A stretch of DNA of 64,000 nucleotides from Eledone cirrhosa (Eukaryota): positions 124,744,001-124,808,000 of the forward strand of contig OZ024741.1 in NCBI GenBank assembly GCA_964016885.1. Direction: 5' to 3'. The notes under the pieces are model-generated. The model worked only from the letters and a program-made list of their open reading frames with translations. It ran no database searches and had not been told where the DNA came from. Below, piece by piece: positions 1 through 36,090 of the stretch. The translations under genes were made by a program, and so were the position numbers. How positions within the stretch are numbered: the first letter of the stretch is position 1; every line of letters begins with the position of its first letter.

Positions 1-2827
1 CGTCGCTCTTCCCCTCCACTAATCCTCTATAGAACGCCGAGGTGGAGTTTCCACCGATCACATTGCCCGATTGGTCGAGGGCTGTGAGCGCCTGAAGACA
101 TTCCAGTCTCCAGGCGCTCCCTCTCGGTCTTCGCTTGACCCAGGACTGCAGCTCCGTCAAGGAAACGAGCTGGGGAAACACGCGTCTAGCAAACGGCGAC
201 CACACCTGATCACCGTCGAGGAAGAGGTGGAGATGTCGTAGCCTGAGCGCGTGCCTGCGCATCATCAGCCATGGCATGCCCAGCCCTCCACGTAGCGGGT
301 GTTGACAACAGATGGACCGCCTGACCATCGGAGCGCGTCCCTTCCACAAAAAGCGAAAGAGCAAACGCTCCAGCACAGTCAGGCGAGGCTTAGGACAAGG
401 TACGACGGTCAGGCGGTAGCAGATGACGGACGCGATGTACGCGTTAGCCACCTCCGCTCGACCTTTCAGGGATAGCTTCCTCTCGGCCCATTTCTGGGTG
501 AGAGAAGCCACCCTGCTCGTCACCTCGTCCCAGTTTTTGTCCGTCTGGAGGTCCGGACCGAACCAGACCCCTAGCAATTTAACCGGTCCGTCCGTCCAGC
601 GTCCGACGACGCTGTTGGACGGCATGGACCTGCCTCTCCAGGTGCCGAGCTGCAGGCCCACTGACTTTTCCTGGTTGATCATTGCTCCTGTCACCGCTTC
701 GTATTCTCTTAGTGTAGTGCCGATCGCCTCGATGTGTTTGGCGTTCGACACCACTACGGTGACATCGTCCGCATATGCTGATACGGATCTTCCGCATCCT
801 AGTTCGCGCGGGACCCCCCTCAACGTCTCCAGTTTGTGCAGTAATGGCTCGAGAGTCAATACGTACAAGAGGGACGAGAGGGGACATCCTTGGCGGACCG
901 AGCGCATGATGTTGAACGGTTCCGACAGGTGACCGTTCACTCTCACCACAGAGCAGATGTCGCTGTGCATGGCAGCGATCCAGCCTCTGAAGACGGGCCC
1001 AAAGCCAGCCGCCCTCAGGACTGCCGCTAGGTAACGATGGTCGACCCTATCGAAAGCTTTCGACTGATCTAAATTGATCAAGGACCCACCCGTGCCAGGT
1101 TCCCTAGCTACCCGCTCTACGATGTATCGCATGAGGTGGAGGTTGTCGTGGATGGATCTGTCGGGAATGGCGCATGTCTGCGCCTCTCCCACCAGACCAC
1201 CAACGACAAGCGCCAACCTCTTTGCTAGCACCTTGGCCAAAATCTTAAACTCTGTGTTTAGCAGAGTTATGGGCCGGAAATTTTCTATGTTATCCCCCTT
1301 GTTCGGATCCTTTCTCAGCAGTGCCACCGCTCCTCGGCTCACAGAACTGGGAATTCTCCCGTTCTGTTGCCAGTTGCAGTAGACGTCCGCCAAGAGGCCT
1401 CCGAACAAGTCTGGCATCTGTACGTAAAGTTCATAGGGCAGACCATCCAAACCAGGCGATTTACCCCTTGTGCAGCCAGTCATTGCCTCCCGTACTTCAG
1501 CGGCTGTTATCGGCTTTTCGCAACACTCCGCCTCAGTGGCCGAGAGCCGCGGCAGTCCGTCGAGGTAGACACTAAAGTCCATCCCTCTACCCGGCCCCCC
1601 TCTGCCCCCGAACAGCTGAGCGAAGTGTCGCTGAAAAGCTTCACACATTTGCCCAGGATCGAGTAGCATGCGCCCGTCGTGGTCCACCAAAGACCGGATC
1701 GTGGCTTTGTTGCCACGACGCGCCTCCGCCACTCGGGCCCATTGAACGGCTTTCGTCCCCTCGTGTCTGAGAGCACGCACCCTAGCTCTGACAACGCAGC
1801 CTTCGTGCTTTGCATTGAAGAATTGGTCAAGGGCCAATTTCGCCGCAAGCACGTCGGTCGCAATGCCTTTGCTAAGCGCCTCGTCTAATTTTCTAACTAG
1901 TTCTCCCTCTGCTCTATTTTTCTCTATTGCTAAAGCCTTACTAAACCTAATCGATTCTATTCTAATCGCTCTTTTCAGAGCAAACCACCACTTGTTGTTG
2001 ACGATGGCCCCCGTCAACGCCCGCTTAACTAGTTCGCTAATCCGGTCTCTGTAGGCCTTGCGCGCTGGTAAGGACGCGTTTAGCTTCCAGTAGCCGGGTC
2101 CTCGTCTATGAAGCCTATCTAAGTCAAGCACACAGGTCACGAATTTGTGGTCCGTGTAGCTGACTATCTTGAATTGTGGACAGCCTATGCTAGACCTATC
2201 TATTTCCCTACAAAATACTCTATCTAGATATGATCTGGATGACCCTATGCGGTTTGTCCAAGTCCACATTGGCACATTCGGGAAATCCAATCGGTACCTG
2301 TCAGACAGTTCAAAACGCCTGAGCAGGTTGGTGAGGCTCTTGCACCCTCCACCCCTATCCGCTAATCCCACACAGTCCCAGCGTGCATCTAAGATCCCGT
2401 TCCAGTCGCCCACTAACACTAAAGAGCGGGACGTTCCAAGAAAGGTCTCCAGACGCCGGAAGAAATCAGGCCGCCCTGCTCCTGTCGGGGCATAGACGGC
2501 CACTAGCCTGAAAGCTTGCCCGTCTCCGCTGGTCACGTCCAGCACCACCAGCTTACCCTCTGGGTCCAGGAAGATGGCCCGTATGGCGAGATCCAAACCT
2601 CTCCGAAAAAGCACAGCAACTCCTCCACCCGATCCAGGACGGCTGGGAGATGCGTACACATCGTAGCCGCCGAAGATCGGTGCGAAGGCCCGTGCTTCGG
2701 AGATTCTGGTCTCGCTGATGGCCACTACATCTATGTTTAGTGACCTGAGGTCGTTGAGCAGGTGACCCTGCTTCCATGACGACCCCAAGCCACGCGCATT
2801 TATGCTGCCTATTCTGAGTGAGGTCAT
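1..2827 (-). CDS. ORF2 (APE endonuclease + reverse transcriptase) of E1, C-terminus outside window
   Basis: CAT at 2825-2827 is the MTSLRIG start. Constant 6047 offset to the intact E2 ORF2 indicates no net indel. It is absent from the ORF track, presumably because the stop lies outside the window. Confidence 0.9.
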   Translation of the reverse strand, partial: MTSLRIGSINARGLGSSWKQGHLLNDLRSLNIDVVAISETRISEARAFAPIFGGYDVYASPSRPGSGGGVAVLFRRGLDLAIRAIFLDPEGKLVVLDVTSGDGQAFRLVAVYAPTGAGRPDFFRRLETFLGTSRSLVLVGDWNGILDARWDCVGLADRGGGCKSLTNLLRRFELSDRYRLDFPNVPMWTWTNRIGSSRSYLDRVFCREIDRSSIGCPQFKIVSYTDHKFVTCVLDLDRLHRRGPGYWKLNASLPARKAYRDRISELVKRALTGAIVNNKWWFALKRAIRIESIRFSKALAIEKNRAEGELVRKLDEALSKGIATDVLAAKLALDQFFNAKHEGCVVRARVRALRHEGTKAVQWARVAEARRGNKATIRSLVDHDGRMLLDPGQMCEAFQRHFAQLFGGRGGPGRGMDFSVYLDGLPRLSATEAECCEKPITAAEVREAMTGCTRGKSPGLDGLPYELYVQMPDLFGGLLADVYCNWQQNGRIPSSVSRGAVALLRKDPNKGDNIENFRPITLLNTEFKILAKVLAKRLALVVGGLVGEAQTCAIPDRSIHDNLHLMRYIVERVAREPGTGGSLINLDQSKAFDRVDHRYLAAVLRAAGFGPVFRGWIAAMHSDICSVVRVNGHLSEPFNIMRSVRQGCPLSSLLYVLTLEPLLHKLETLRGVPRELGCGRSVSAYADDVTVVVSNAKHIEAIGTTLREYEAVTGAMINQEKSVGLQLGTWRGRSMPSNSVVGRWTDGPVKLLGVWFGPDLQTDKNWDEVTSRVASLTQKWAERKLSLKGRAEVANAYIASVICYRLTVVPCPKPRLTVLERLLFRFLWKGRAPMVRRSICCQHPLRGGLGMPWLMMRRHALRLRHLHLFLDGDQVWSPFARRVFPQLVSLTELQSWVKRRPRGSAWRLECLQALTALDQSGNVIGGNSTSAFYRGLVEGKSD

Positions 2828-2861
2828 GTTTAAATAGAGTGGAAAAGATGGGAAAGACCAC

Positions 2862-4958
2862 TTACCGTACTTTTGGTAGAGGAGGGATGGTTTTTACATC
2901 CCTTTTCACTTGATCGTCTGGTGAAGGGACCGTTGAATCGTCCCTTCGGCTGGTCGTCGGCTCTTCTAAGAGAATGTCTGAATATACTCTTCGATTGATG
3001 GTTCCTCCTAGGTCCCTGAAATCACCAACTGAGTTGGGGAATTTCGTTTTAATGTTTGTGTATTGTTTCTGTGCTATTTTTAGCAGTCTTATGTTAGTTG
3101 GCGTTTTGATTGGTGCTGGTATTATGTAGTCCTGTTGTGAAATGTCTGTGTGTTCAATTATGTAAGTCATTAGTTTCTTGTTGTGTGTGTTTATTGCCGT
3201 GCATTTGTTTTTCTGGGGGTGGGGTGTGGTTCTGCTATTTTCTTGTCGTTGTTGCTGGGTGTGTGTGTTTTGTTGTTGTGTTTGCGATGTTGGTGCTTGT
3301 GGTGGTGGTGTTGAAGGTGTTGTTGGCGGTGGGGTTGTCGCCGGTGGTGATGGTGGTGCTGGTGTGGGTGGTGATGGTGTTGGTGGTGTTGCTGCTGTGG
3401 GTCTCTTTGCAGTAGACTTTACCCTTTTCTCATTTCTTTCCTCCCTTTTCAAAGGCGACGATGCGCTGCTTCTGCGTTTGTGCCTTCTTGCGACCTTTTG
3501 CCATCCCTCTCCCACGTCACACTCCATGTCTGATTCTGTAAGGTCGGGGAGGGGTACCAGCTCCACTCTTTCACTTGTTGTTGTTGGTGATGTTTGCACT
3601 GGAGTCTCTGTTGCAGCTGCATTTGGTATTGCTGTTGTTGTTGTTAATATTTCCACTGCTGCTGCTGTCTTTGATTTCCGTGGAGTGGGTATGGGTGCCA
3701 CGGACCTATCGTTCCTGGTTGCCGCTTGTCCTGTTGCTGGTAGCCGTGGAGCCGGATTCGGAAGGAGGGGGGTTTTCTCCTTTCTCAGGGTCTTCTCGTT
3801 GCAGAAGGCCCTGAGGTGAGTCTTCGATCCACAGCGAAAGCATTTCGGGCGTTTGCCCTCAACACTTATGGGCAGTTGAGTGCCGTTATCGAAGTCTATC
3901 ACATCCGGGATAGCTTCGATGCACTCCTGGTTGGTTTGGATTAGCATCTCAATGGAGGAGCCGACCCAATCTTCTCTTACTTTTTTCTGTACTTGCAGTA
4001 CAGTTGTTTTGTCCTCGATTCCGACGAGGACAGACGCGGCCAGCCAAGAAGGGGTCATTCCGGGGGGGACGTGGGTCAGTTTGACCCTCACAATTTTTTG
4101 CCCGCAGTAGGAGGGCACCAACACCATTTCCTCGCTCCTTAGGGTCACTACTGATTGGGCCTTTGCCTCCTGGGGTGTGGCAAAAAGTACGTCTACGGTG
4201 GCGTATTTTTTGCCTCGGGTGATGTGCGTTTTCCTCTGCCACACAGACCCCAAGGCTTTTTGTATTTGGGCCTCTGTGGCTCTTTCCACCCTACGGGATT
4301 TTGTACTTACTGTACGGTACGTGACCGTACAGTGCTCTTGGGTTTCGAAAAAATTTTTCGCTGCCTTGCAGATTGCTCGGTGTCCGTTCTTTGTCACCAT
4401 CTTCTTCGCTTCCTCTAATTCCTCATTTGTTATGAGGATTGTTTCCAAGTTTTTCGCAATACCTGCAAATGAGATTGGTTTTTCTCTGCTGTTGTTGTTG
4501 TCGTCAGAGCTGCTGGTACTTTTGTTGTTGCTGCAGGTACTACGACTACTGCCTCCGCCGCTGTTGCTGTGGTTGTTGTTGGTGTTGCTGCTGCTAATGC
4601 TGTTGTTGTTTATGCTGCTGGTGATGCTGTTGCGGCTGCTACTGTTGTTTTCATTGTCACTGTTGCTGTTGTTATTACGGCTGTTACTGTTATTATTCCT
4701 GACGTCAGACGAATGAACTGGGTTTTCGTATTTCCCGCACACCTGTTTCGTCGCTGTCGTCGTCGTCGTGGAGAAACCTTGCACGCTTTGCACGAGACTT
4801 TTCTTTTCTTTCGTCGCTTGCGAAAGAGAAGGGAGGGAAAGAGACACATTTAAAGAAGGGAGGGAGAGAGACAATCTTCTCTCTGCTGTAGTGATGATTG
4901 AGGAAGAAGAAGACGGAATGAGTGGGAGTGACGTATGAAATTTCTTTTTGGTAGCCAT
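2862..4958 (-). CDS. ORF1 Gag-like nucleic-acid-binding protein with CCHC zinc knuckle (E1)
   Basis: Starts MATKKK as in the other copies. CFRCGSKTHLRAFC = CX2CX4HX4C. N/S-rich and P/T-rich low-complexity tracts. Confidence 0.9.
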   Translation of the reverse strand: MATKKKFHTSLPLIPSSSSSIITTAERRLSLSLPSLNVSLSLPSLSQATKEKKSLVQSVQGFSTTTTTATKQVCGKYENPVHSSDVRNNNSNSRNNNSNSDNENNSSSRNSITSSINNNSISSSNTNNNHSNSGGGSSRSTCSNNKSTSSSDDNNNSREKPISFAGIAKNLETILITNEELEEAKKMVTKNGHRAICKAAKNFFETQEHCTVTYRTVSTKSRRVERATEAQIQKALGSVWQRKTHITRGKKYATVDVLFATPQEAKAQSVVTLRSEEMVLVPSYCGQKIVRVKLTHVPPGMTPSWLAASVLVGIEDKTTVLQVQKKVREDWVGSSIEMLIQTNQECIEAIPDVIDFDNGTQLPISVEGKRPKCFRCGSKTHLRAFCNEKTLRKEKTPLLPNPAPRLPATGQAATRNDRSVAPIPTPRKSKTAAAVEILTTTTAIPNAAATETPVQTSPTTTSERVELVPLPDLTESDMECDVGEGWQKVARRHKRRSSASSPLKREERNEKRVKSTAKRPTAATPPTPSPPTPAPPSPPATTPPPTTPSTPPPQAPTSQTQQQNTHTQQQRQENSRTTPHPQKNKCTAINTHNKKLMTYIIEHTDISQQDYIIPAPIKTPTNIRLLKIAQKQYTNIKTKFPNSVGDFRDLGGTINRRVYSDILLEEPTTSRRDDSTVPSPDDQVKRDVKTIPPLPKVR

Positions 4959-5171
4959 GTTTTTTTGTTTAAAATGAAATTTTGGGTACAAAACCCCAAT
5001 AACTGGTTATTTAACCCCGAAGGGCCAAATAACGGACAGAAAGACCCCTCTCACGAGGAGGAGGGTGTCTTTATCAACAATTTGGTTCAAGTTTTAAACA
5101 ATTTACAATTGTTTTAACGGTTAAAAATTACTATACCTTACAGAGCCGAGCCTCCGTCAACCATGGCATTC

Positions 5172-5192
5172 AATAATAATAATAATAATAAT
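5172..5192. repeat. Inter-element spacer 1: (AAT)7
   Basis: Directly between the E1 5' end and the E2 3' end. Confidence 0.9.
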
Positions 5193-5204
5193 GATTTCTT
5201 TATT
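5193..5204 (-). terminator. Putative polyadenylation signal AATAAA at element 3' end (present in E2-E6)
   Basis: Minus strand reads GGTTAATAAAGAAATC followed by (ATT)n. Confidence 0.55.
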
Positions 5205-5454
5205 AACCACAAGGGTTTACATAAAGTAGACATTAAGGACAGTGCAGGACAATGCAGGACGGTACAAATGGGCATTTCTGCGTGTAAAAAAACAAAAACA
5301 GAGGATGTAACAAAAATAACAATGAAAATAACAATGAAAAATTCCCCAATAGGGGGGAGACTTCGGAGGGACATTTGTGGAGAAAGCCCAGTAAAAAGCC
5401 ACAATGACCCTGACCACCAAGGCAAGTGCCCTCTCCCAGTTTTCCACCTTTAGT

Positions 5455-8400
5455 TTACAGATATATACTCAGAGTCGGCCTATTCACTCGGGCCATTCTA
5501 GCTTCTCTCACCCATCTTTCAACAAAATGCTGGGAAGAGAGCACTTCCTTCTCTACTCTGATTTTCCTTTTCAAATGAAATTTGAAAAAGTCAATCAGAG
5601 CATCACCGAAGAGGTAAGTGCTCGTCTTCAGCCCTTTCAAACGTGTCCACCATACTATCTCTTTCGCCATGGCCACCAGACAGATAAAAACTGCCTGCCC
5701 ATCCTGGCTAAAGGAGGAGGGCGGGGCAATCCTCACGATGGACTCAGATGATAGCTGGATCCGTCCTAAACGCGACAGCAGGTGTTTGACATAAACCCAC
5801 AAGTCAGCAATTTTCGGACACTGGACGAGTGCGTGCAGGACGGTTTCGTCGCCCTGCGCGCATCTCGGACATGCCCGGCTGACGACACCTCCATGCCTGT
5901 AGAGTTTATCCCGAACTGGCAAGGCTCCTCGGTAGCACTGCCAGGCCAGAGATTTCTGGAAGTTGTCCATAGGCCCTGGCCCGAAAGTTCTTCCGAAGAG
6001 ATTGGCTAGTTGATTTTCGTCGACGCCTAGAGTTTCCCCAAGTACGTCGTCGCTCTTCCCCTCCACTAATCCTCTATAGAACGCCGAGGTGGAGTTTCCA
6101 CCGATCACATTGCCCGATTGGTCGAGGGCTGTGAGCGCCTGAAGACATTCCAGTCTCCAGGCGCTCCCTCTCGGTCTTCGCTTGACCCAGGACTGCAGCT
6201 CCGTCAAGGAAACGAGCTGGGGAAAAACGCGTCTAGCAAACGGCGACCACACCTGATCACCGTCGAGGAAGAGGTGGAGATGTCGTAGCCTGAGCGCGTG
6301 CCTGCGCATTATCAGCCACGGCATGCCCAGCCCTCCACGTAGCGGGTGTTGACAACAGATGGACCGCCTGACCATCGGAGCACGTCCCTTCCACAAAAAG
6401 CGAAAGAGCAAACGCTCCAGCGCAGTCAGGCGAGGCTTAGGACAAGGTACTACGGTTAGGCGGTAGCAGATGACAGACGCGATGTACGCGTTAGCCACCT
6501 CCGCTCGACCTTTCAGGGATAGCTTCCTCTCCGCCCATTTCTGGGTGAGAGAAGCCACCCTGCTCGTCACCTCGTCCCAGTTTTTGTCCGTCTGGAGGTC
6601 CGGACCGAACCAGACCCCTAGCAATTTAACCGGTCCGTCCGTCCAGCGCCCGACGAGGCTGTTGGACGGCATGCACCTGCCTCTCCAGGTGCCGAGCTGC
6701 AGGCCCACTGACTTTTCCTGGTTGATCATTGCTCCTGTCACCGCTTCGTATTCTCTTAGTGTAGTGCCGATCGCCTCGATGTGTTTGGCGTTCGACACCA
6801 CTACGGTGACATCGTCCGCATATGCTGACACGGATCTTCCGCATCCTAGTTCGCGCGGGACTCCCCTCAACGTCTCCAGTTTGTGCAGTAATGGCTCGAG
6901 AGTCAATACGTACAAGAGGGACGAGAGGGGACATCCTTGGCGGACCGAGCGCATGATGTTGAACGGTTCCGACAGGTGACCGTTCACTCTCACTACAGAG
7001 CAGATGTCGCTGTGCATGGCAGCGATCCAGCCTCTGAAGACGGGCCCAAAGCCAGCCGCCCTCAGGACTGCCGCTAGGTAACGATGGTCGACCCTATCGA
7101 AAGCTTTCGACTGATCTAAATTGATCAAGGACCCACCCGTGCCAGGTTCCCTAGCTACCCTCTCTACGATGTATCGCATGAGGTGGAGGTTGTCGTGGAT
7201 GGATCTGTCGGGAATGGCGCATGTCTGCGCCTCTCCCACCAGACCACCAACGACAAGCGCCAACCTCTTTGCTAGCACCTTGGCCAAAATCTTAAACTCT
7301 GTGTTTAGCAGAGTTATGGGCCGGAAATTGTCTATGTTATCCCCCTTGTTCGGATCCTTTCTCAGCAGTGCCACCGCTCCTCGGCTCACAGAACTGGGAA
7401 TTCTCCCGTTCTGTTGCCAGTTGCAGTAGACGTCCGCCAAGAGGCCTCCGAACAAGTCTGGCATCTGTACGTAAAGTTCATAGGGCAGACCATCTAAACC
7501 AGGCGATTTACCCCTTGTGCAGCCAGTCATTGCCTCCCGTACTTCAGCGGCTGTTATCGGCTTTTCGCAACACTTCGCCTCAGTGGCCGAGAGCCGCGGC
7601 AGTCCGTCGAGGTAGACACGAAAGTCCATCCCTCTACCCGGCCCCCCGCTGCCCCCGAACAGCTGAGCGAAGTGTCGCTGAAAAGCTTCACACATTTGCT
7701 CGGGATCGAGTAGCATGCGCCCGTCGTGGTCCACCAAAGACCGGATCGTGGCTTTGTTGTCACGACGCGCCTCCGCCACTCGGGCCCATTGAACGGCTTT
7801 CGTCCCCTCGTGTCTGAGAGCACGCACCCTAGCTCTGACAACGCAGCCTTCGTGCTTTGCATTGAAGAATTGGTCAAGGGCCAATTTCGCCGCAAGCACG
7901 TCGGTCGCAATGCCTTTGCTAAGCGCCTCGTCTAATTTTCTAACTAGTTCTCCCTCTGCTCTATTTTTCTCTATTGCTAAAGCCTTACTAAACCTAATCG
8001 ATTCTATTCTAATCGCTCTTTTCAGAGCAAACCACCACTTGTTGTTGACGATGGCCCCCGTCAACGCCCGCTTAACTAGTTCGCTAATCCGGTCTCTGTA
8101 GGCCTTGCGCGCTGGTAAGGACGCGTTTAGCTTCCAGTAGCCGGATCCTCGTCTATGAAGCCTATCTAAGTCAAGCACACAGGTCACGAATTTGTGGTCC
8201 GTGTAGCTGACTATCTTGAATTGTGGACAGCCTATGCTAGACCTATCTATTTCCCTACAAAATACTCTATCTAGATATGATCTGGATGACCCTATGCGGT
8301 TTGTCCAAGTCCACATTGGCACATTCGGGAAATCCAATCGGTACCTGTCAGACAGTTCAAAACGCCTGAGCAGGTTGGTGAGGCTCTTGCACCCTCCACC

Positions 8401-8874
8401 CCTATCCGCTAATCCCACACAGTCCCAGCGTGCATCTAAGATCCCGTTCCAGTCGCCCACTAACACTAAAGAGCGGGACGTTCCAAGAAAGGTCTCCAGA
8501 CGCCGGAAGAAATCAGGCCGCCCTGCTCCTGTCGGGGCATAGACGGCCACTAGCCTGAAAGCTTGCCCGTCTCCGCTGGTCACGTCCAGCACCACCAGCT
8601 TACCCTCTGGGTCCAGGAAGATGGCCCGTATGGCGAGATCCAAACCTCTCCGAAAAAGCACAGCAACTCCTCCACCCGATCCAGGACGGCTGGGAGATGC
8701 GTACACATCGTAGCCGCCGAAGATCGGTGCGAAGGCCCGTGCTTCGGAGATTCTGGTCTCGCTGATGGCCACTACATCTATGTTTAGTGACCTGAGGTCG
8801 TTGAGCAGGTGACCCTGCTTCCATGACGACCCCAAGCCACGCGCATTTATGCTGCCTATTCTGAGTGAGGTCAT
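5455..8874 (-). CDS. ORF2 APE endonuclease-reverse transcriptase-Zn finger, 1139 aa (E2)
   Basis: APE motifs SINARGL, ISET, VGDWN, YLDRVF, TDH. RT motifs PGLDG, FRPITLLN, LDQSKAFDRV, QGCPLS, YADD. C-terminal CPRC-X8-H-X4-C. Confidence 0.97.
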   Translation of the reverse strand: MTSLRIGSINARGLGSSWKQGHLLNDLRSLNIDVVAISETRISEARAFAPIFGGYDVYASPSRPGSGGGVAVLFRRGLDLAIRAIFLDPEGKLVVLDVTSGDGQAFRLVAVYAPTGAGRPDFFRRLETFLGTSRSLVLVGDWNGILDARWDCVGLADRGGGCKSLTNLLRRFELSDRYRLDFPNVPMWTWTNRIGSSRSYLDRVFCREIDRSSIGCPQFKIVSYTDHKFVTCVLDLDRLHRRGSGYWKLNASLPARKAYRDRISELVKRALTGAIVNNKWWFALKRAIRIESIRFSKALAIEKNRAEGELVRKLDEALSKGIATDVLAAKLALDQFFNAKHEGCVVRARVRALRHEGTKAVQWARVAEARRDNKATIRSLVDHDGRMLLDPEQMCEAFQRHFAQLFGGSGGPGRGMDFRVYLDGLPRLSATEAKCCEKPITAAEVREAMTGCTRGKSPGLDGLPYELYVQMPDLFGGLLADVYCNWQQNGRIPSSVSRGAVALLRKDPNKGDNIDNFRPITLLNTEFKILAKVLAKRLALVVGGLVGEAQTCAIPDRSIHDNLHLMRYIVERVAREPGTGGSLINLDQSKAFDRVDHRYLAAVLRAAGFGPVFRGWIAAMHSDICSVVRVNGHLSEPFNIMRSVRQGCPLSSLLYVLTLEPLLHKLETLRGVPRELGCGRSVSAYADDVTVVVSNAKHIEAIGTTLREYEAVTGAMINQEKSVGLQLGTWRGRCMPSNSLVGRWTDGPVKLLGVWFGPDLQTDKNWDEVTSRVASLTQKWAERKLSLKGRAEVANAYIASVICYRLTVVPCPKPRLTALERLLFRFLWKGRAPMVRRSICCQHPLRGGLGMPWLIMRRHALRLRHLHLFLDGDQVWSPFARRVFPQLVSLTELQSWVKRRPRGSAWRLECLQALTALDQSGNVIGGNSTSAFYRGLVEGKSDDVLGETLGVDENQLANLFGRTFGPGPMDNFQKSLAWQCYRGALPVRDKLYRHGGVVSRACPRCAQGDETVLHALVQCPKIADLWVYVKHLLSRLGRIQLSSESIVRIAPPSSFSQDGQAVFICLVAMAKEIVWWTRLKGLKTSTYLFGDALIDFFKFHLKRKIRVEKEVLSSQHFVERWVREARMARVNRPTLSIYL

Positions 8875-8909
8875 GTTTAAAATAGAGTGGAAAAGATGGG
8901 AAAGACCAC

Positions 8910-10956: not shown

Positions 10957-11171
10957 GTTGTTTTTTGTTTAAAATGAAATTTTGGGTACAAAACCCCAAT
11001 AACTGGTTATTTAACCCCGAAGGGCCAAATAACGGACAGAAAGACCCCTCTCACGAGGAGGAGGGTGTCTTTATCAACAATTTGGTTCAAGTTTTAAACA
11101 ATTTACAATTGTTTTAACGGTTAAAAATTACTATACCTTACAGAGCCGAGCCTCCGTCAACCATGGCATTC

Positions 11172-11207
<36 letters not shown>

Positions 11208-11238
11208 AAAAAAAAGAAATATATATATATATACATAT

Positions 11239-11286
<48 letters not shown>

Positions 11287-11311
11287 ACACACATACATTA
11301 ATAACAATAAT
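11172..11311. repeat. Inter-element spacer 2 (140 bp): copy of upstream flank, compound (AAT)n/A-run/(TA)n/(CA)n
   Basis: Matches the flank starting at 35837 except for slippage in the (CA)n tract. Confidence 0.9.
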
Positions 11312-11573
11312 GATTTCTTTATTAACCACAAGGGTTTACATAAAGTAGACATTAAGGACAGTGCAGGACAATGCAGGACGGTACAAATGGGCATTTCTGC
11401 GTGTAAAAAAACAAAAACAGAGGATGTAACAAAAATAACAATGAAAATAACAATGAAAAATTCCCCAATAGGGGGGAGACTTCGGAGGGACATTTGTGGA
11501 GAAAGCCCAGTAAAAAGCCACAATGACCCTGACCACCAAGGCAAGTGCCCTCTCCCAGTTTTCCACCTTTAGT

Positions 11574-23526: not shown

Positions 23527-23557
23527 AAAAAAAAGAAATATATATATATATACATAT

Positions 23558-23590
<33 letters not shown>

Positions 23591-27299: not shown

Positions 27300-27334
27300 G
27301 TTTAAAATAGAGTGGAAAAGATGGGAAAGACCAC

Positions 27335-29431
27335 TTACCGTACTTTTGGTAGAGGAGGGATGGTTTTTACATCCCTTTTCACTTGATCGTCTGGTGAAGG
27401 GACCGTTGAATCGTCCCTTCGGCTGGTCGTCGGCTCTTCTAAGAGAATGTCTGAATATACTCTTCGATTAATGGTTCCTCCTAGGTCCCTGAAATCACCA
27501 ACTGCGTTGGGGAATTTCGTTTTAATGTTTGTGTATTGTTTCTGTGCTATTTTTAGCAGTCTTATGTTAGTTGGCGTTTTGATTGGTGCTGGTATTATGT
27601 AGTCCTGTTGTGAAATGTCTGTGTGTTCAATTATGTAAGTCATTAGTTTCTTGTTGTGTGTGTTTATTGCCGTGCATTTGTTTTTCTGGGGGTGAGGTGT
27701 GGTTCTGCTATTTTCTTGTCGTTGTTGCTGGGTGTGTGTGTTTTGTTGTTGTGTTTGCGATGTTGGTGCTTGTGGTGGTGGTGTTGAAGGTGTTGTTGGC
27801 GGTGGGGTTGTCGCCGGTGGTGATGGTGGTGCTGGTGTGGGTGGTGATGGTGTTGGTGGTGTTGCTGCTGTGGGTCTCTTTGCAGTAGACTTTACCCTTT
27901 TCTCATTTCTTTCCTCCCTTTTCAAAGGCGACGATGCGCTGCTTCTGCGTTTGTGCCTTCTTGAGACCTTTTGCCATCCCTCTCCCACCTCACACTCCAT
28001 GTCTGATTCTGTAAGGTCGGGGAGGGGTACCAGCTCCACTCTTTCACTTGTTGTTGTTGGTGATGTTTGCACTGGAGTCTCTGTTGCAGCTGCATTTGGT
28101 ATTGCTGTTGTTGTTGTTAATATTTCCACTGCTGCTGCTGTCTTTGATTTCCGTGGAGTGGGTATGGGTGCCACGGACCTATCGTTCCTGGTTGCCGCTT
28201 GTCCTGTTGCTGGTAGCCGTGGAACCGGATTCGGGAGGAGGGGGGTTTTCTCCTTTCTCATGGTCTTCTCGTTGCAGAAGGCCCTGAGGTGAGTCTTCGA
28301 TCCACAGCGAAAGCATTTCGGGCGTTTGCCCTCAACACTTATGGGCAGTTGAGTGCCGTTATCGAAGTCTATCACATCCGGGATAGCTTCGATGCACTCC
28401 TGGTTGGTTTGGATTAGCATCTCAATGGAGGAGCCGACCCAATCTTCTCTTACTTTTTTCTGTACTTGCAGTACAGTTGTTTTGTCCTCGATTCCGACGA
28501 GGACAGACGCGGCCAGCCAAGAAGGGGTCATTCCGGGGGGGACGTGGGTCAGTTTGACCCTCACAATTTTTTGCCCGCAGTAGGAGGGCACCAACACCAT
28601 TTCCTCGCTCCTTAGGGTCACTACTGATTGGGCCTTTGCCTCCTGGGGTGTGGCAAAAAGTACGTCTACGGTGGCGTATTTTTTGCCTCGGGTGATGTGC
28701 GTTTTCCTCTGCCACACAGACCCCAAGGCTTTTTGTATTTGGGCCTCTGTGGCTCTTTCCACCCTACGGGATTTTGTACTTACTGTACGGTACGTGACCG
28801 TACAGTGCTCTTGGGTTTCGAAAAAATTTTTCGCTGCCTTGCAGATTGCTCGGTGTCCGTTCTTTGTCACCATCTTCTTCGCTTCCTCTAATTCCTCATT
28901 TGTTATGAGGATTGTTTCCAGGTTTTTCGCAATACCTGCAAATGAGATTGGTTTTTCTCTGCTGTTGTTGTTGTCGTCAGAGCTGCTGGTACTTTTGTTG
29001 TTGCTGCAGGTACTACGACTACTGCCTCCGCCGCTGTTGCTGTGGTTGTTGTTGGTGTTGCTGCTGCTAATGCTGTTGTTGTTTATGCTGCTGGTGATGC
29101 TGTTGCGGCTGCTACTGTTGTTTTCATTGTCACTGTTGCTGTTGTTATTACGGCTGCTACTGCTATTATTCCTGACGTCAGACGAATGAACTGGGTTTTC
29201 GTATTTCCCGCACACCTGTTTCGTCGCTGTCGTCGTCGTCGTGGAGAAACCTTGCACGCTTTGCACGAGACTTTTCTTTTCTTTCGTCACTTGCGAAAGA
29301 GAAGGGAGGGAGAGAGACACATTTAAAGAAGGGAGGGAGAGAGACAATCTTCTCTCTGCTGTAGTGATGATTGAGGAAGAAGAAGACGGAATGAGTGGGA
29401 GTGACGTATGAAATTTCTTTTTCGTAGCCAT
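27335..29431 (-). CDS. ORF1 with CCHC zinc knuckle, 698 aa (E5)
   Basis: Open frame with CX2CX4HX4C. Confidence 0.92.
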   Translation of the reverse strand: MATKKKFHTSLPLIPSSSSSIITTAERRLSLSLPSLNVSLSLPSLSQVTKEKKSLVQSVQGFSTTTTTATKQVCGKYENPVHSSDVRNNSSSSRNNNSNSDNENNSSSRNSITSSINNNSISSSNTNNNHSNSGGGSSRSTCSNNKSTSSSDDNNNSREKPISFAGIAKNLETILITNEELEEAKKMVTKNGHRAICKAAKNFFETQEHCTVTYRTVSTKSRRVERATEAQIQKALGSVWQRKTHITRGKKYATVDVLFATPQEAKAQSVVTLRSEEMVLVPSYCGQKIVRVKLTHVPPGMTPSWLAASVLVGIEDKTTVLQVQKKVREDWVGSSIEMLIQTNQECIEAIPDVIDFDNGTQLPISVEGKRPKCFRCGSKTHLRAFCNEKTMRKEKTPLLPNPVPRLPATGQAATRNDRSVAPIPTPRKSKTAAAVEILTTTTAIPNAAATETPVQTSPTTTSERVELVPLPDLTESDMECEVGEGWQKVSRRHKRRSSASSPLKREERNEKRVKSTAKRPTAATPPTPSPPTPAPPSPPATTPPPTTPSTPPPQAPTSQTQQQNTHTQQQRQENSRTTPHPQKNKCTAINTHNKKLMTYIIEHTDISQQDYIIPAPIKTPTNIRLLKIAQKQYTNIKTKFPNAVGDFRDLGGTINRRVYSDILLEEPTTSRRDDSTVPSPDDQVKRDVKTIPPLPKVR

Positions 29432-29646
29432 GTTGTTTTTTGTTTAAAATGAAATTTTGGGTACAAAACCCCAATAACTGGTTATTTAACCCCGAAGGGC
29501 CAAATAACGGACAGAAAGACCCCTCTCACGAGGAGGAGGGTGTCTTTATCAACAATTTGGTTCAAGTTTTAAACAATTTACAATTGTTTTAACGGTTAAA
29601 AATTACTATACCTTACAGAGCCGAGCCTCCGTCAACCATGGCATTC

Positions 29647-29682
<36 letters not shown>

Positions 29683-29713
29683 AAAAAAAAGAAATATATA
29701 TATATATACATAT

Positions 29714-29746
<33 letters not shown>

Positions 29747-29806
29747 TACACATACACACACACATACATTAATAACAATAATAATAATAATAATAACAAC
29801 AATAAT
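29647..29806. repeat. Inter-element spacer 5 (160 bp): copy of upstream flank
   Basis: Matches 35837-35996. Confidence 0.9.
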
Positions 29807-30069
29807 GATTTCTTTATTAACCACAAGGGTTTACATAAAGTAGACATTAAGGACAGTGCAGGACAATGCAGGACGGTACAAATGGGCATTTCTGCGTGTA
29901 AAAAAAACAAAAATAGAGGATGTAACAAAAATAACAATGAAAATAACAATGAAAAATTCCCCAATAGGGGGGAGACTTCGGAGGGACATTTGTGGAGAAA
30001 GCCCAGTAAAAAGCCACAATGACCCTGACCACCAAGGCAAGTGCCCTCTCCCAGTTTTCCACCTTTAGT

Positions 30070-33000
30070 TTACAGATATATACTCAGAGTCGGCCCATTC
30101 ACTCGGGCCATTCTTGCTTCTCTCACCCATCTTTCAACAAAATGCTGGGAAGAGAGCACTTCCTTCTCTACTCTGATTTTCCTTTTCAAATGAAATTTGA
30201 AAAAGTCAATCAGAGCATCACCGAAGAGGTAAGTGCTCGTCTTCAGCCCTTTCAAACGTGTCCACCATACTATCTCTTTCGCCATGGCCACCAGACAGAT
30301 AAAAACTGCCTGCCCTTCCCGGCTAAAGGAGGAGGGCGGGGCAATCCTCACGATAGACTCAGATGATAGCTGGATCCGTCCTAAACGCGACAGCAGGTGT
30401 TCGACATAAACCCACAAGTCAGCAATTTTCGGACACTGGACGAGTGCGTGCAGGACGGTTTCGTCGCCCTGCGCGCATCTCGGACATGCCCGGCTGACGG
30501 CACCTCCATGCCTGTAGAGTTTATCCCGAACTGGCAAGGCTCCTCGGTAGCACTGCCAGGCCAGAGATTTCTGGAAGTTGTCCATAGGCCCTGGCCCGAA
30601 GGTTCTTCCGAAGAGATTGGCTAGTTGATTTTCGTCGACGCCTAGAGTTTCCCCAAGTACGTCGTCGCTCTTCCCCTCCACTAATCCTCTATAGAACGCC
30701 GAGGTGGAGTTTCCACCGATCACATTGCCCGATTGGTCGAGGGCTGTGAGCGCCTGAAGACATTCCAGTCTCCAGGCGCTCCCTCTCGGTCTTCGCTTGA
30801 CCCAGGACTGCAGCTCCGTCAAGGAAACGAGCTGGGGAAAAACGCGTCTAGCAAACGGCGACCACACCTGATCACCGTCGAGGAAGAGGTGGAGATGTCG
30901 TAGCCTGAGCGCGTGCCTGCGCATCATCAGCCACGGCATGCCCAGCCCTCCACGTAGCGGGTGTTGACAACAGATGGACCGCCTGACCATCGGAGCACGT
31001 CCCTTCCACAAAAAGCGAAAGAGCAAACGCTCCAGCGCAGTCAGGCGAGGCTTAGGACAAGGTACGACGGTTAGGCGGTAGCAGATGACAGACGCGATGT
31101 ACGCGTTAGCCACCTCCGCTCGACCTTTCAGGGATAGCTTCCTCTCCGCCCATTTCTGGGTGAGAGAAGCCACCCTGCTCGTCACCTCGTCCCAGTTTTT
31201 GTCCGTCTGGAGGTCCGGACCGAACCAGACCCCTAGCAATTTAACCGGTCCGTCCGTCCAGCGCCCGACGACGCTGTTGGACGGCATGGACCTGCCTCTC
31301 CAGGTGCCGAGCTGCAGGCCCACTGACTTTTCCTGGTTGATCATTGCTCCTGTCACCGCTTCGTATTCTCTTAGTGTAGTGCCGATCGCCTCGATGTGTT
31401 TGGCGTTCGACACCACTACGGTGACATCGTCCGCATATGCTGACACGGATCTTCCGCATCCTAGTTCGCGCGGGACTCCCCTCAACGTCTCCAGTTTGTG
31501 CAGTAATGGCTCGAGAGTCAATACGTACAAGAGGGACGAGAGGGGACATCCTTGGCGGACCGAGCGCATGATGTTGAACGGTTCCGACAGGTGACCGTTC
31601 ACTCTCACCACAGAGCAGATGTCGCTGTGCATGGCAGCGATCCAGCCTCTGAAGACGGGCCCAAAGCCAGCCGCCCTCAGGACTGCCGCTAGGTAACGAT
31701 GGTCGACCCTATCGAAAGCTTTCGACTGATCTAAATTGATCAAGGACCCACCCGTGCCAGGTTCCCTAGCTACCCTCTCTACGATGTATCGCATGAGGTG
31801 GAGGTTGTCGTGGATGGATCTGTCGGGAATGGCGCATGTCTGCGCCTCTCCCACCAGACCACCAACGACAAGCGCCAACCTCTTTGCTAGCACCTTGGCC
31901 AAAATCTTAAACTCTGTGTTTAGCAGAGTTATGGGCCGGAAATTGTCTATGTTATCCCCCTTGTTCGGATCCTTTCTCAGCAGTGCCACCGCTCCTCGGC
32001 TCACAGAACTGGGAATTCTCCCGTTCTGTTGCCAGTTGCAGTAGACGTCCGCCAAGAGGCCTCCGAACAAGTCTGGCATCTGTACGTAAAGTTCATAGGG
32101 CAGACCATCCAAACCAGGCGATTTACCCCTTGTGCAGCCAGTCATTGCCTCCCGTACTTCAGCGGCTGTTATCGGCTTTTCGCAACACCTCGCCTCAGTG
32201 GCCGAGAGCCGCGGCAGCCCGTCGAGGTAGACACTAAAGTCCATCCCTCTACCCGGCCCCCCGCTGCCCCCGAACAGCTGAGCGAAGTGTCGCTGAAAAG
32301 CTTCACACATTTGCCCGGGATCGAGTAGCATGCGCCCGTCGTGGTCCACCAAAGACCGGATCGTGGCTTTGTTGCCACGACGCGCCTCCGCCACTCGGGC
32401 CCATTGAACGGCTTTCGTCCCCTCGTGTCTGAGAGCACGCACCCTAGCTCTGACAACGCAGCCTTCGTGCTTTGCATTGAAGAATTGGTCAAGGGCCAAT
32501 TTCGCCGCAAGCACGTCGGTCGCAATGCCTTTGCTAAGCGCCTCGTCTAATTTTCTAACTAGTTCTCCCTCTGCTCTATTTTTCTCTATTGCTAAAGCCT
32601 TACTAAACCTAATCGATTCTATTCTAATCGCTCTTTTCAGAGCAAACCACCACTTGTTGTTGACGATGGCCCCCGTCAACGCCCGCTTAACTAGTTCGCT
32701 AATCCGGTCTCTGTAGGCTTTGCGCGCTGGTAAGGACGCGTTTAGCTTCCAGTAGTCGGGTCCTCGTCTATGAAGCCTATCTAAGTCAAGCACACAGATC
32801 ACGAATTTGTGGTCCGTGTAGCTGACTATCTTGAATTGTGGACAGCCTATGCTAGACCTATCTATTTCCCTACAAAATACTCTATCTAGATATGATCTGG
32901 ATGACCCTATGCGGTTTGTCCAAGTCCACATTGGCACATTCGGGAAATCCAATCGGTACCTGTCAGACAGTTCAAAACGCCTGAGCAGGTTGGTGAGGCT

Positions 33001-33489
33001 CTTGCACCCTCCACCCCTATCCGCTAATCCCACACAGTCCCAGCGTGCATCTAAGATCCCGTTCCAGTCGCCCACTAACACTAAAGAGCGCGACGTTCCA
33101 AGAAAGGTCTCCAGACGCCGGAAGAAATCAGGCCGCCCTGCTCCTGTCGGGGCATAGACGGCCACTAGCCTGAAAGCTTGCCCGTCTCCGCTGGTCACGT
33201 CCAGCACCACCAGCTTACCCTCTGGGTCCAGGAAGATGGCCCGTATGGCGAGATCCAAACCTCTCCGAAAAAGCACAGCAACTCCTCCACCCGATCCAGG
33301 ACGGCTGGGAGATGCGTACACATCGTAGCCGCCGAAGATCGGTGCGAAGGCCCGTGCTTCGGAGATTCTGGTCTCGCTGATGGCCACTACATCTATGTTT
33401 AGTGACCTGAGGTCGTTGAGCAGGTGACCCTGCTTCCATGACGACCCCAAGCCACGCGCATTTATGCTGCCTATTCTGAGTGAGGTCAT
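30070..33489 (-). CDS. ORF2 APE-RT-Zn finger, 1139 aa (E6)
   Basis: Same motifs; open frame. Confidence 0.97.
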   Translation of the reverse strand: MTSLRIGSINARGLGSSWKQGHLLNDLRSLNIDVVAISETRISEARAFAPIFGGYDVYASPSRPGSGGGVAVLFRRGLDLAIRAIFLDPEGKLVVLDVTSGDGQAFRLVAVYAPTGAGRPDFFRRLETFLGTSRSLVLVGDWNGILDARWDCVGLADRGGGCKSLTNLLRRFELSDRYRLDFPNVPMWTWTNRIGSSRSYLDRVFCREIDRSSIGCPQFKIVSYTDHKFVICVLDLDRLHRRGPDYWKLNASLPARKAYRDRISELVKRALTGAIVNNKWWFALKRAIRIESIRFSKALAIEKNRAEGELVRKLDEALSKGIATDVLAAKLALDQFFNAKHEGCVVRARVRALRHEGTKAVQWARVAEARRGNKATIRSLVDHDGRMLLDPGQMCEAFQRHFAQLFGGSGGPGRGMDFSVYLDGLPRLSATEARCCEKPITAAEVREAMTGCTRGKSPGLDGLPYELYVQMPDLFGGLLADVYCNWQQNGRIPSSVSRGAVALLRKDPNKGDNIDNFRPITLLNTEFKILAKVLAKRLALVVGGLVGEAQTCAIPDRSIHDNLHLMRYIVERVAREPGTGGSLINLDQSKAFDRVDHRYLAAVLRAAGFGPVFRGWIAAMHSDICSVVRVNGHLSEPFNIMRSVRQGCPLSSLLYVLTLEPLLHKLETLRGVPRELGCGRSVSAYADDVTVVVSNAKHIEAIGTTLREYEAVTGAMINQEKSVGLQLGTWRGRSMPSNSVVGRWTDGPVKLLGVWFGPDLQTDKNWDEVTSRVASLTQKWAERKLSLKGRAEVANAYIASVICYRLTVVPCPKPRLTALERLLFRFLWKGRAPMVRRSICCQHPLRGGLGMPWLMMRRHALRLRHLHLFLDGDQVWSPFARRVFPQLVSLTELQSWVKRRPRGSAWRLECLQALTALDQSGNVIGGNSTSAFYRGLVEGKSDDVLGETLGVDENQLANLFGRTFGPGPMDNFQKSLAWQCYRGALPVRDKLYRHGGAVSRACPRCAQGDETVLHALVQCPKIADLWVYVEHLLSRLGRIQLSSESIVRIAPPSSFSREGQAVFICLVAMAKEIVWWTRLKGLKTSTYLFGDALIDFFKFHLKRKIRVEKEVLSSQHFVERWVREARMARVNGPTLSIYL

Positions 33490-33524
33490 GTTTAAAATAG
33501 AGTGGAAAAGATGGGAAAGACCAC

Positions 33525-35621
33525 TTACCGTATTTTTGGTAGAGGAGGGATGGTTTTTACATCCCTTTTCACTTGATCGTCTGGTGAAGGGACCGTTGAA
33601 TCGTCCCTTCGGCTGGTCGTCGGCTCTTCTAAGAGAATGTCTGAATATACTCTTCGATTAATGGTTCCTCCTAGGTCCCTGAAATCACCAACTGCGTTGG
33701 GGAATTTCGTTTTAATGTTTGTGTATTGTTTCTGTGCTATTTTTAGCAGTCTTATGTTAGTTGGCGTTTTGATTGGTGCTGGTATTATGTAGTCCTGTTG
33801 TGAAATGTCTGTGTGTTCAATTATGTAAGTCATTAGTTTCTTGTTGTGTGTGTTTATTGCCGTGCATTTGTTTTTCTGGGGGTGGGGTGTGGTTCTGCTA
33901 TTTTCTTGTCGTTGTTGCTGGGTGTGTGTGTTTTGTTGTTGTGTTTGCGATGTTGGTGCTTGTGGTGGTGGTGTTGAAGGTGTTGTTGGCGGTGGGGTTG
34001 TCGCCGGTGGTGATGGTGGTGCTGGTGTGGGTGGTGATGGTGTTGGTGGTGTTGCTGCTGTGGGTCTCTTTGCAGTAGACTTTACCCTTTTCTCATTTCT
34101 TTCCTCCCTTTTCAAAGGCGACGATGCGCTGCTTCTGCGTTTGTGCCTTCTTGAGACCTTTTGCCATCCCTCTCCCACCTCACACTCCATGTCTGATTCT
34201 GTAAGGTCGGGGAGGGGTACCAGCTCCACTCTTTCACTTGTTGTTGTTGGTGATGTTTGCACTGGAGTCTCTGTTGCAGCTGCATTTGGTATTGCTGTTG
34301 TTGTTGTTAATATTTCCACTGCTGCTGCTGTCTTTGATTTCCGTGGAGTGGGTATGGGTGCCACGGACCTATCGTTCCTGGTTGCCGCTTGTCCTGTTGC
34401 TGGTAGCCGTGGAACCGGATTCGGGAGGAGGGGGGTTTTCTCCTTTCTCATGGTCTTCTCGTTGCAGAAGGCCCTGAGGTGAGTCTTCGATCCACAGCGA
34501 AAGCATTTCGGGCGTTTGCCCTCAACACTTATGGGCAGTTGAGTGCCGTTATCGAAGTCTATCACATCCGGGATAGCTTCGATGCACTCCTGGTTGGTTT
34601 GGATTAGCATCTCAATGGAGGAGCCGACCCAATCTTCTCTTACTTTTTTCTGTACTTGCAGTACAGTTGTTTTGTCCTCGATTCCGACGAGGACAGACGC
34701 GGCCAGCCAAGAAGGGGTCATTCCGGGGGGGACGTGGGTCAGTTTGACCCTCACAATTTTTTGCCCGCAGTAGGAGGGCACCAACACCATTTCCTCGCTC
34801 CTTAGGGTCACTACTGATTGGGCCTTTGCCTCCTGGGGTGTGGCAAAAAGTACGTCTACGGTGGCGTATTTTTTGCCTCGGGTGATGTGCGTTTTCCTCT
34901 GCCACACAGACCCCAAGGCTTTTTGTATTTGGGCCTCTGTGGCTCTTTCCACCCTACGGGATTTTGTACTTACTGTACGGTACGTGACCGTACAGTGCTC
35001 TTGGGTTTCGAAAAAATTTTTCGCTGCCTTGCAGATTGCTCGGTGTCCGTTCTTTGTCACCATCTTCTTCGCTTCCTCTAATTCCTCATTTGTTATGAGG
35101 ATTGTTTCCAGGTTTTTCGCAATACCTGCAAATGAGATTGGTTTTTCTCTGCTGTTGTTGTTGTCGTCAGAGCTGCTGGTACTTTTGTTGTTGCTGCAGG
35201 TACTACGACTACTGCCTCCGCCGCTGTTGCTGTGGTTGTTGTTGGTGTTGCTGCTGCTAATGCTGTTGTTGTTTATGCTGCTGGTGATGCTGTTGCGGCT
35301 GCTACTGTTGTTTTCATTGTCACTGTTGCTGTTGTTATTACGGCTGCTACTGCTATTATTCCTGACGTCAGACGAATGAACTGGGTTTTCGTATTTCCCG
35401 CACACCTGTTTCGTCGCTGTCGTCGTCGTCGTGGAGAAACCTTGCACGCTTTGCACGAGACTTTTCTTTTCTTTCGTCGCTTGCGAAAGAGAAGGTAGGG
35501 AGAGAGACACATTTAAAGAAGGGAGGGAGAGAGACAATCTTCTCTCTGCTGTAGTGATGATTGAGGAAGAAGAAGACGGAATGAGTGGGAGTGACGTATG
35601 AAATTTCTTTTTCGTAGCCAT
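33525..35621 (-). CDS. ORF1 with CCHC zinc knuckle, 698 aa (E6)
   Basis: Open frame with CX2CX4HX4C. Confidence 0.92.
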   Translation of the reverse strand: MATKKKFHTSLPLIPSSSSSIITTAERRLSLSLPSLNVSLSLPSLSQATKEKKSLVQSVQGFSTTTTTATKQVCGKYENPVHSSDVRNNSSSSRNNNSNSDNENNSSSRNSITSSINNNSISSSNTNNNHSNSGGGSSRSTCSNNKSTSSSDDNNNSREKPISFAGIAKNLETILITNEELEEAKKMVTKNGHRAICKAAKNFFETQEHCTVTYRTVSTKSRRVERATEAQIQKALGSVWQRKTHITRGKKYATVDVLFATPQEAKAQSVVTLRSEEMVLVPSYCGQKIVRVKLTHVPPGMTPSWLAASVLVGIEDKTTVLQVQKKVREDWVGSSIEMLIQTNQECIEAIPDVIDFDNGTQLPISVEGKRPKCFRCGSKTHLRAFCNEKTMRKEKTPLLPNPVPRLPATGQAATRNDRSVAPIPTPRKSKTAAAVEILTTTTAIPNAAATETPVQTSPTTTSERVELVPLPDLTESDMECEVGEGWQKVSRRHKRRSSASSPLKREERNEKRVKSTAKRPTAATPPTPSPPTPAPPSPPATTPPPTTPSTPPPQAPTSQTQQQNTHTQQQRQENSRTTPHPQKNKCTAINTHNKKLMTYIIEHTDISQQDYIIPAPIKTPTNIRLLKIAQKQYTNIKTKFPNAVGDFRDLGGTINRRVYSDILLEEPTTSRRDDSTVPSPDDQVKRDVKTIPPLPKIR

Positions 35622-35836
35622 GTTGTTTTTTGTTTAAAATGAAATTTTGGGTACAAAACCCCAATAACTGGTTATTTAACCCCGAAGGGCCAAATAACGG
35701 ACAGAAAGACCCCTCTCACGAGGAGGAGGGTGTCTTTATCAACAATTTGGTTCAAGTTTTAAACAATTTACAATTGTTTTAACGGTTAAAAATTACTATA
35801 CCTTACAGAGCCGAGCCTCCGTCAACCATGGCATTC

Positions 35837-35872
<36 letters not shown>

Positions 35873-35903
35873 AAAAAAAAGAAATATATATATATATACA
35901 TAT

Positions 35904-35936
<33 letters not shown>

Positions 35937-36090
35937 TACACATACACACACACATACATTAATAACAATAATAATAATAATAATAACAACAATAATGATA
36001 ACGAAAACAACAATAATAATATACATATACATATATATATACACACACACGCACACACATAAGCGTATCTACACACTCACACACACGATA
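35837..36090. repeat. Compound microsatellite flank, putative target site of the array
   Basis: (AAT)n, A-run, (TA)n, (CA)n, (AAT/AAC)n. Its first 21-160 bp recur in every spacer. Confidence 0.85.

Follow-up and report, generated by a model that had tools for sequence, protein, structure and literature searches.

Neighbouring copies in tandem arrays of an L1-like retrotransposon of Eledone cirrhosa often share 5' parts and duplicated flanking DNA

A 64,000-nucleotide stretch of the Eledone cirrhosa genome, referred to here as the window (contig OZ024741.1, positions 124,744,001 to 124,808,000; G000:C2:124.744-124.808 Mb within the 3.0-Gb assembly GCA_964016885.1), contains six co-oriented, 6.0-kb L1-like retrotransposons, arranged head to tail on the minus strand and beginning at the identical base. 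Arrays of this kind recur in the family, and their neighbouring copies often have a 5' part in common, with spacers between them that are duplicates of the DNA upstream of the array. It is proposed, with a probability of roughly 0.55, that the array grew mainly by complementary DNAs (cDNAs) that were primed upstream of a resident element and then copied the 5' part of that resident together with its flank, with some later unequal exchange. All of the array and family results rest on one assembly.

The array comprises exactly six copies, numbered c1 (outermost) to c6 (Table 1), and the DNA to the left of the c6 end is unrelated. This bears out an initial annotation, made from the window sequence alone, that counted at least six co-oriented full-length copies with one start nucleotide, five intact copies of open reading frame 1 (ORF1), and open ORF2s throughout: c1-c4 and c6 have an intact ORF1 (697-698 amino acids), whereas that of c5 is broken, and all six copies have an intact ORF2 (1139 amino acids). 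Pairs of copies differ by 10-65 substitutions, and c1, c4, c5, and c6 are different family haplotypes, separated by 16-65 differences, many of which are found in both states at other loci. Four of the five spacers copy the outer 5' flank of c1, beginning at different ATT tracts, and the earlier claim that spacers copy their local 5' flank holds here and at other loci with other flanks. The absence of ribosomal DNA, small nuclear RNA, and telomere repeats was also annotated correctly, as the window contains no Rfam family at gathering score, no transfer RNA gene, and no doubled TTAGGG. A seventh full-length copy (c7) lies 4.4 kb past c6 on the same strand (G000:C2:124,732,726-124,738,754; L031-L032) and is not in tandem.

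Stacking is a habit of the family and the array is not unique, as is evident from counts of tail-to-head junctions and from further arrays of five, six, and ten copies at other loci. There are 361 such junctions, of which 321 have spacers of 3-70 bp and 40 have spacers of 71-300 bp, and control patterns gave none. Exact 26-mers of the 5' and 3' ends are present 1604 and 7591 times in the whole genome, respectively, although the 3' 26-mer may also pick up older subfamilies. In-phase (ATT)n directly precedes all 141 of the fetched 5' ends, with 2-27 units and at least five units in 138 of them; (ATT)3 joined to the 5' end has 1679 exact genome-wide matches, and ATT is next to the 3' ends of copies as well. 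These sequences point to (ATT)n as the ordinary target of the family, with a predicted cutting preference of the endonuclease, and the family lies within the range that defines microsatellite specificity in PMC4494074 (target in >20% of flanks). What had been annotated as only an (ATT)-rich flank is thus better described as this ordinary target. An RNA origin of the (ATT)n at the 5' end was also considered, from upstream flanks that often break inside another long interspersed nuclear element (LINE); this was rejected as evidence, as that LINE may itself have been truncated at these breaks, within the same repeat.

Duplication of the flank is associated with a resident copy. When the last non-ATT bases of a copy's own upstream flank were looked for again after the copy, this mark recurred in 25 of 47 copies with another 5' end behind them versus none of the 35 single or last copies. 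Loci fetched later gave 14/24 versus 1/22, for a pooled 39/71 (a fraction raised by the choice of loci, as described below) versus 1/57. The script used to detect duplications misses D01, which has a 286-bp exact copy, and omits copies with the family tail and pure ATT upstream; at B04, the duplicate begins at a non-ATT place, behind a short tail.

The second line of evidence is the chimeric nature of the neighbours. Ranked against outside copies, flank-copy pairs have an identical run from base 1 that falls in the top 5% in 17 of 27 cases and a run from the 3' end that does so in 3 of 27, and counting one pair per locus gives 8/12 loci for the 5' run and 1/12 for the 3' run. Previously unseen long-spacer junctions, fetched afterwards as a test, showed the same asymmetry (8/13 versus 1/13 pairs, and 5/10 versus 0/10 loci), and overall, long runs are present at the 5' end in 26/40 pairs and at the 3' end in 6/40. 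Of the locus-private variants common to a pair, 34 of 36 are in the 5' half, where 49% would be expected from all 2070 locus-private variants. Past the break, the upstream copy is usually nearer to a copy elsewhere than to its neighbour, and the break points are skewed toward the 5' end, with a median position of about 900 of 6030. The alignments left out copies outside 5.6-6.25 kb, and A02, A07, B05, B11, and V207 were compared apart; for B03, the length of the 5' run changes with the alignment used (2298 versus 815). L067 and L068 were excluded as segmental duplicates of L066; the three (G000:C1:217.37-217.58 Mb) have the same flanks on both sides and are about 100 kb apart, the segmental duplication including the element.

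Two loci illustrate the chimeras clearly. At A07 (G000:C1:76.07 Mb), the first 1503 bases of the upstream copy are identical to those of an old, partly deleted resident and differ from every other copy sampled by 54 or more changes, and the remaining 4.5 kb are 15 changes from a young outside copy; the partners are 93-95% alike, and the spacer is an 868-bp flank copy with one mismatch. At B05, bases 1-3037 are identical to the resident, followed by 62 differences from the resident and 2 from an outside copy. In the ten-copy array B01, the flank mark is present in all nine spacers, and none of the seven internal copies tested fits unequal crossover between neighbours. The outermost copy of the ten-copy array (G000:C1:441.086-441.143 Mb; L111-L116, L151) consists of the first 2119 bases only, followed by a spacer, with no 3' end. 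Single copies are also mosaics of common haplotype blocks, as expected if cDNAs primed in a resident tail replaced its 3' part.

In the proposed mechanism, an ATT tract lying upstream of a resident, 20-900 bp from its 5' end, would be nicked by the endonuclease, and reverse transcription would begin there on RNA from another locus. The end of the cDNA, wherever synthesis stopped, would anneal to the same position of the resident on the same or the sister chromatid, and synthesis would continue over the resident 5' part and its flank back to the nick. The product would have the order flank, chimera (resident 5'/donor 3'), flank, resident, with the new copy always full-length. Such a switch of the cDNA would account for the precise common start of the copies, for the absence of truncation within arrays, for spacers whose left edge varies while the right edge is fixed, and for the asymmetry between 5' and 3' sharing. 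A broader proposal, that the germline of this family routinely completes cDNAs on a resident neighbour, is more tentative and somewhat short of an even chance; about half of the tandem loci are marked, and in such a pathway truncated cDNAs would be rescued, dead residents would donate their 5' ends, the landing site would be remade, arrays of up to ten intact elements would build themselves, and promoters and ORF1/ORF2 combinations would be reshuffled.

Several observations weigh against the cDNA switch. The tandem fraction is inflated, as marked or long spacers were the reason for choosing many of the tandem loci; in favour of the switch, loci chosen by position alone carry the flank mark in 8 of 15 cases (own tally). 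B09 and V189 have flank duplications with no resident behind them (Table 1), so a resident is not required. Many flank-copy pairs have only 20-360 bases in common, which is background (median 164, 95th percentile 445), and as the shared 5' runs of c1/c2 (340) and c4/c5 (223) are within that background, a switch is assumed for both. The longest identical tract is internal in 14/22 pairs, and pure-ATT pairs show long 5' runs too (15/35), making the class border soft, although the same event, leaving no visible mark, probably lies behind some of these. For c3 and c4, both states are found elsewhere at only 1 of 10 differences, and the outside donor of c3 is absent from the sample. Plain unequal crossover fits 5 of 45 internal copies. 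Finally, a single assembly cannot separate a cDNA switch from insertion followed by recombination.

This last alternative is the main rival; it is rather unlikely but makes closely similar predictions. In it, the new copy first inserts plainly at an upstream ATT tract and then undergoes crossover or conversion with a resident carried by the other allele or the sister chromatid. With the left part coming from the allele without the insertion and the right part from the allele with it, the product and the 5' sharing would be the same, and possible intermediates exist in the form of young copies, truncated or full, that adjoin the left edge of a long spacer with no duplication (A04 copy 1, V177, V193, and the outer copy of V214). 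Recombination between neighbours does occur, as reflected in the few internal copies that fit unequal crossover and in the c1-like tract of c2. However, shifted crossovers in long arrays should mostly hit internal copies and leave 3' sharing, contrary to the excess of long 5' runs, to the low number of internal copies that fit crossover between neighbours (only 5 of 45), and to the internal copies of B01, and the break points are skewed toward the 5' end instead of being even. The divergence of the A07 partners also disfavours crossover, as mismatch repair disfavours crossover between partners of such divergence.

The initial annotation favoured independent full-length insertions at the 5' end of the outermost copy, for which the long target-site duplications would arise through a distant second nick or (ATT)n annealing. 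In keeping with this, c1 and c4 diverge from their neighbours from bases 341 and 224 on, several pairs (V203, V205, and V218) have fewer than 60 bases in common, and B09 and V189 are examples of long duplications without a resident. There are also precedents in the literature: R1 tandems arise by insertion into a duplication at the 5' end of a resident (PMC2718515), and duplications of hundreds of bases beside a LINE, as here, are known for the Dualen element Dualen-4b (median 900 bp) and for R9 (126 bp) (PMC9977147). As described there, the Dualen-4b and R9 duplications bracket single insertions, whereas here a duplication is found in only 1/57 single or last copies; long duplication around single insertions is therefore not the rule in this family. 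Independent insertion leaves this rarity unexplained, as it does the concentration of shared private variants in the 5' half and the A07 and B05 chimeras. As neighbours often have their 5' part in common, independent insertion is refuted as a general rule and is an improbable explanation overall, although it may hold at some junctions.

A DNA-only origin, in which a single insertion was duplicated in tandem between ATT tracts by slippage or unequal exchange, is very improbable, as is an assembly artefact. The identical c2/c3 and c3/c4 spacers and the locus-private 3' variants common to c2 and c3 are of the kind expected from DNA duplication, as are the identical copies 2 and 3 of C02x. However, c1, c4, c5, and c6 are different haplotypes, the spacers begin at different ATT tracts, and many loci with other flanks show the pattern again; a preference for the 5' half would not be expected of an artefact. 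Slippage from a single ancestral junction, named at the outset as the explanation that could overturn the annotation, cannot yield the outside haplotype of c1 together with its 160-bp flank copy.

The history of the window array can be partly reconstructed from the locus-private changes, which number 1, 5, 8, 7, 23, and 7 in c1 to c6, respectively. On this basis, c5 is the likely founder, as it has 23 such changes and a broken ORF1, and c6 was probably added on its 3' side by plain insertion, given the unrelated haplotype behind a pure (ATT)7. The spacer after c4 (140 bp) is longer than the one before it (127 bp), indicating that c4 was added while the outer flank adjoined it. Copy c3 is wholly accounted for by the 5' part of c4, with which it is identical over 1-3500 including three locus-private variants, and the 3' part of c2; together with the common spacer sequence and the c1-like tract at 726-2226 in c2, this suggests that one of c2/c3 is likely a product of unequal exchange. 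With 7 differences to a copy on another chromosome and 16 to c2, c1 has a young outside haplotype and is thus not a DNA duplicate, and as the whole 160-bp flank is present only at the outer end, it was added last, at that end. Under the cDNA-switch mechanism, the order would be c5 first, c6 by plain insertion into the c5 tail, and c4 and c1 by early switches at the outer end; a late switch would have given c3 or c2, and unequal exchange one of these two.

Growth of the array is therefore mostly 5'-ward but not solely from one end. The annotated mode of growth, in which each new copy enters 5' of the outermost one and restores the flank, is appropriate for c1, with its complete flank copy and outside haplotype, and not for c6, which most likely joined on the 3' side. 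Strict growth from one end does not hold, as c5 is the oldest and c3 combines parts of c4 and c2, and no general age gradient along arrays is present across 30 multi-copy loci, with more private changes in the 3'-most copy at 14 and in the 5'-most copy at 11. In B01, copy 1 has bases 1-1729 in common with copy 5, pointing to additions between them. The ages of the window copies are thus not those of a strictly polarised array of the HeT-A/TART kind, and the likeness to spacer acquisition in clustered regularly interspaced short palindromic repeats (CRISPR) that had been suggested survives as a loose analogy only, without its strict polarity.

The encoded proteins place the element in the L1 superfamily of APE-type retrotransposons that lack long terminal repeats (non-LTR), a classification that rests on sequence features: a separate ORF1 precedes an ORF2 with predicted APE endonuclease, reverse transcriptase (RT), and zinc domains. 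ORF2 matches PF03372 (E 3e-14), PF00078 (E 1e-28), and PF13966 (E 7e-08), and its top solved-structure match is human L1 ORF2p (E 2.6e-52), with R2 proteins at 1e-21. As in other members of the superfamily, the 3' end is fixed and carries a simple tail, and many copies in the genome are 5'-truncated; the tail is (ATT)n behind AATAAA, instead of poly(A). Tx1-clade ORF1 proteins bear a CCHC zinc knuckle, and a CCHC motif is present at residue 373 of ORF1, although this feature is not exclusive to Tx1. The comparison with that clade is one of features, and the 35 homologues found carry no element names. Both ORFs are intact in 82 of 129 full-length family copies.

The closest known systems each share some of these properties. 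Kibi (TC)n, Koshi (TTC)n, and the crocodilian (TTCC)n/(TTTC)n elements are microsatellite-targeting members of the Tx1 clade, and SINEU-3 forms tandem insertions around a target duplication (PMC4494074, PMC3812793); an (ATT)n target is listed only for Dong in the accessible text of PMC3812793. By features, the present element is like the microsatellite Tx1 elements in having two ORFs, an APE endonuclease with RT, and insertion into one microsatellite, but it differs in its (ATT)n target and in the copying of unique flanks and the 5' chimeras of neighbours, which the accessible accounts do not describe for them. Drosophila R1 tandems are similar in being head to tail with a target duplication between copies, in keeping the target, in entry 5' of the resident, and in later unequal exchange (PMC2718515; bioRxiv 158386), and a kept target is known to yield tandems (bioRxiv 158386, PMC2718515). 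However, R1 and other double-insertion tandems have, in the accessible descriptions, a fixed short spacer (14 or 33 bp), and non-LTR dimers are there mostly tail-to-truncated, in contrast to the spacers of 20-890 bp of any local flank and the 5' chimeras here. Double insertion of the R1 type is recognizable at some pure-ATT junctions, such as c5/c6; flank-copy junctions do not have this form, with spacers of up to 868 bp and 5' parts common to the adjoining copies.

Recombination between cDNA and residents also has precedents. Zorro3 of Candida albicans (L1 clade) has a simple-repeat target (poly-A) at both ends of full-length copies, and in 6 of 30 new insertions the 5' end came from an endogenous copy located on the same chromosome, by recombination proposed to act on single-stranded cDNA (PMC1965478). 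As far as that text goes, the Zorro3 events come from an induced assay and presumably delete the intervening DNA, whereas the present arrays are the mirror case, with a nick upstream and a duplication that adds a copy, in a natural genome and at many loci. In human cells, L1 cDNA that leaves its RNA and pairs with nearby or sister DNA has been proposed to give duplications (PMC7058536; bioRxiv 2024.12.14.628481, 2024.08.27.596794). These human events are rare, somatic or in cell culture, and mostly truncated, and a germline route to full-length arrays is not described in the accessible parts of those reports. Chimeric L1 insertions in human cells were reportedly described by Gilbert et al. in 2005. 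No arrays built via cDNA recombination with residents were found in a search of the open-access literature that did not extend to supplements.

The landing site of the window array is the microsatellite-rich tail of another LINE-like ORF, at window positions 36000-35837. Tails of a similar kind, rich in microsatellites and holding several ATT tracts within 50-300 bp, also form the flanks of arrays B01, C02, V199, V211, and V214. Such LINE-like tails seem to be a favoured site for long-spacer arrays. Beyond it, broken pieces of another LINE with RT and zinc-motif matches are on the opposite strand (window 37199-39186, 39543-40100, and 41719-42552, plus strand), and LINE 3' ends similar to these, oppositely oriented, come after c6, c7, and many other copies. 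The remainder of the window (43000-64000) is AT-rich, with dense (AT)n, (CA)n, and (AG)n microsatellites and short dispersed repeats, and no convincing gene was seen there.

Table 1. Coordinates of the array and associated features (window positions unless a contig is given)
Feature	Position	Strand	Remarks
Copy c1, 6030 bp	29807..35836	-	Outermost and youngest, 1 locus-private change; nearest relatives from base 341 on are outside copies
ORF1 of c1, 698 aa	33525..35621	-	Single CCHC knuckle (residue 373); Pfam families above cut-off: none
ORF2 of c1, 1139 aa	30070..33489	-	APE endonuclease, reverse transcriptase (YADD at 685), C-terminal zinc motif (predicted domains)
Outer 5' flank, 160 bp	35837..35996	-	Microsatellite stretch with several ATT tracts, terminal (ATT)9; spacer source
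Spacer c1/c2, 160 bp	29647..29806	-	Exact match to whole outer flank
Copy c2, 6029 bp	23618..29646	-	Resembles c3, but c1-like at 726-2226
Spacer c2/c3, 127 bp	23491..23617	-	Last 127 bases of outer flank
Copy c3, 6026 bp	17465..23490	-	1-3500 identical to c4; most of 3' part identical to c2
Spacer c3/c4, 127 bp	17338..17464	-	Same sequence as c2/c3 spacer
Copy c4, 6026 bp	11312..17337	-	45 differences from c5, identity only at 1-223
Spacer c4/c5, 140 bp	11172..11311	-	Flank copy, differing inside (TG) run
Copy c5, 5979 bp	5193..11171	-	ORF1 broken; highest locus-private count; likely founder
Spacer c5/c6, 21 bp	5172..5192	-	Pure (ATT)7
Copy c6	1..5171, end 854 bases left of window	-	Haplotype unrelated to c5; likely plain insertion in ATT tail of c5
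3' part of another LINE-like ORF with C2H2 fingers	36095..37096	-	Its microsatellite-rich tail is the landing site
B09 and V189 loci	G000:C2:166.146-166.183 Mb (L139-L142); G000:C3:328.93-328.94 Mb (L189-L190)		70-100-bp duplications without resident, seen by eye

The array is real in the assembly and is more telling as a family pattern than as a single array. A microsatellite target, tandem formation, and recombination between cDNA and residents are each known singly; no account of the three combined, as a common natural way of adding full-length chimeras and duplicating up to 0.9 kb of flank, was found in the open-access literature searched. The 5' joining of LINE cDNA and second-strand synthesis are still open questions according to PMC6895275, and here one genome provides hundreds of natural junctions at which the template of the last step is readable from variants. 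If true, the proposed mechanism would join double insertion and unequal exchange as a third way in which dispersed LINEs become tandem arrays. It would also explain why full-length copies occur in runs in a family most of whose 3' ends lack a 5' end, and would be a source of the strong mosaicism among copies. Homology beside the target could then make L1-type insertions full-length, a question of interest for retrotransposon-based gene insertion.

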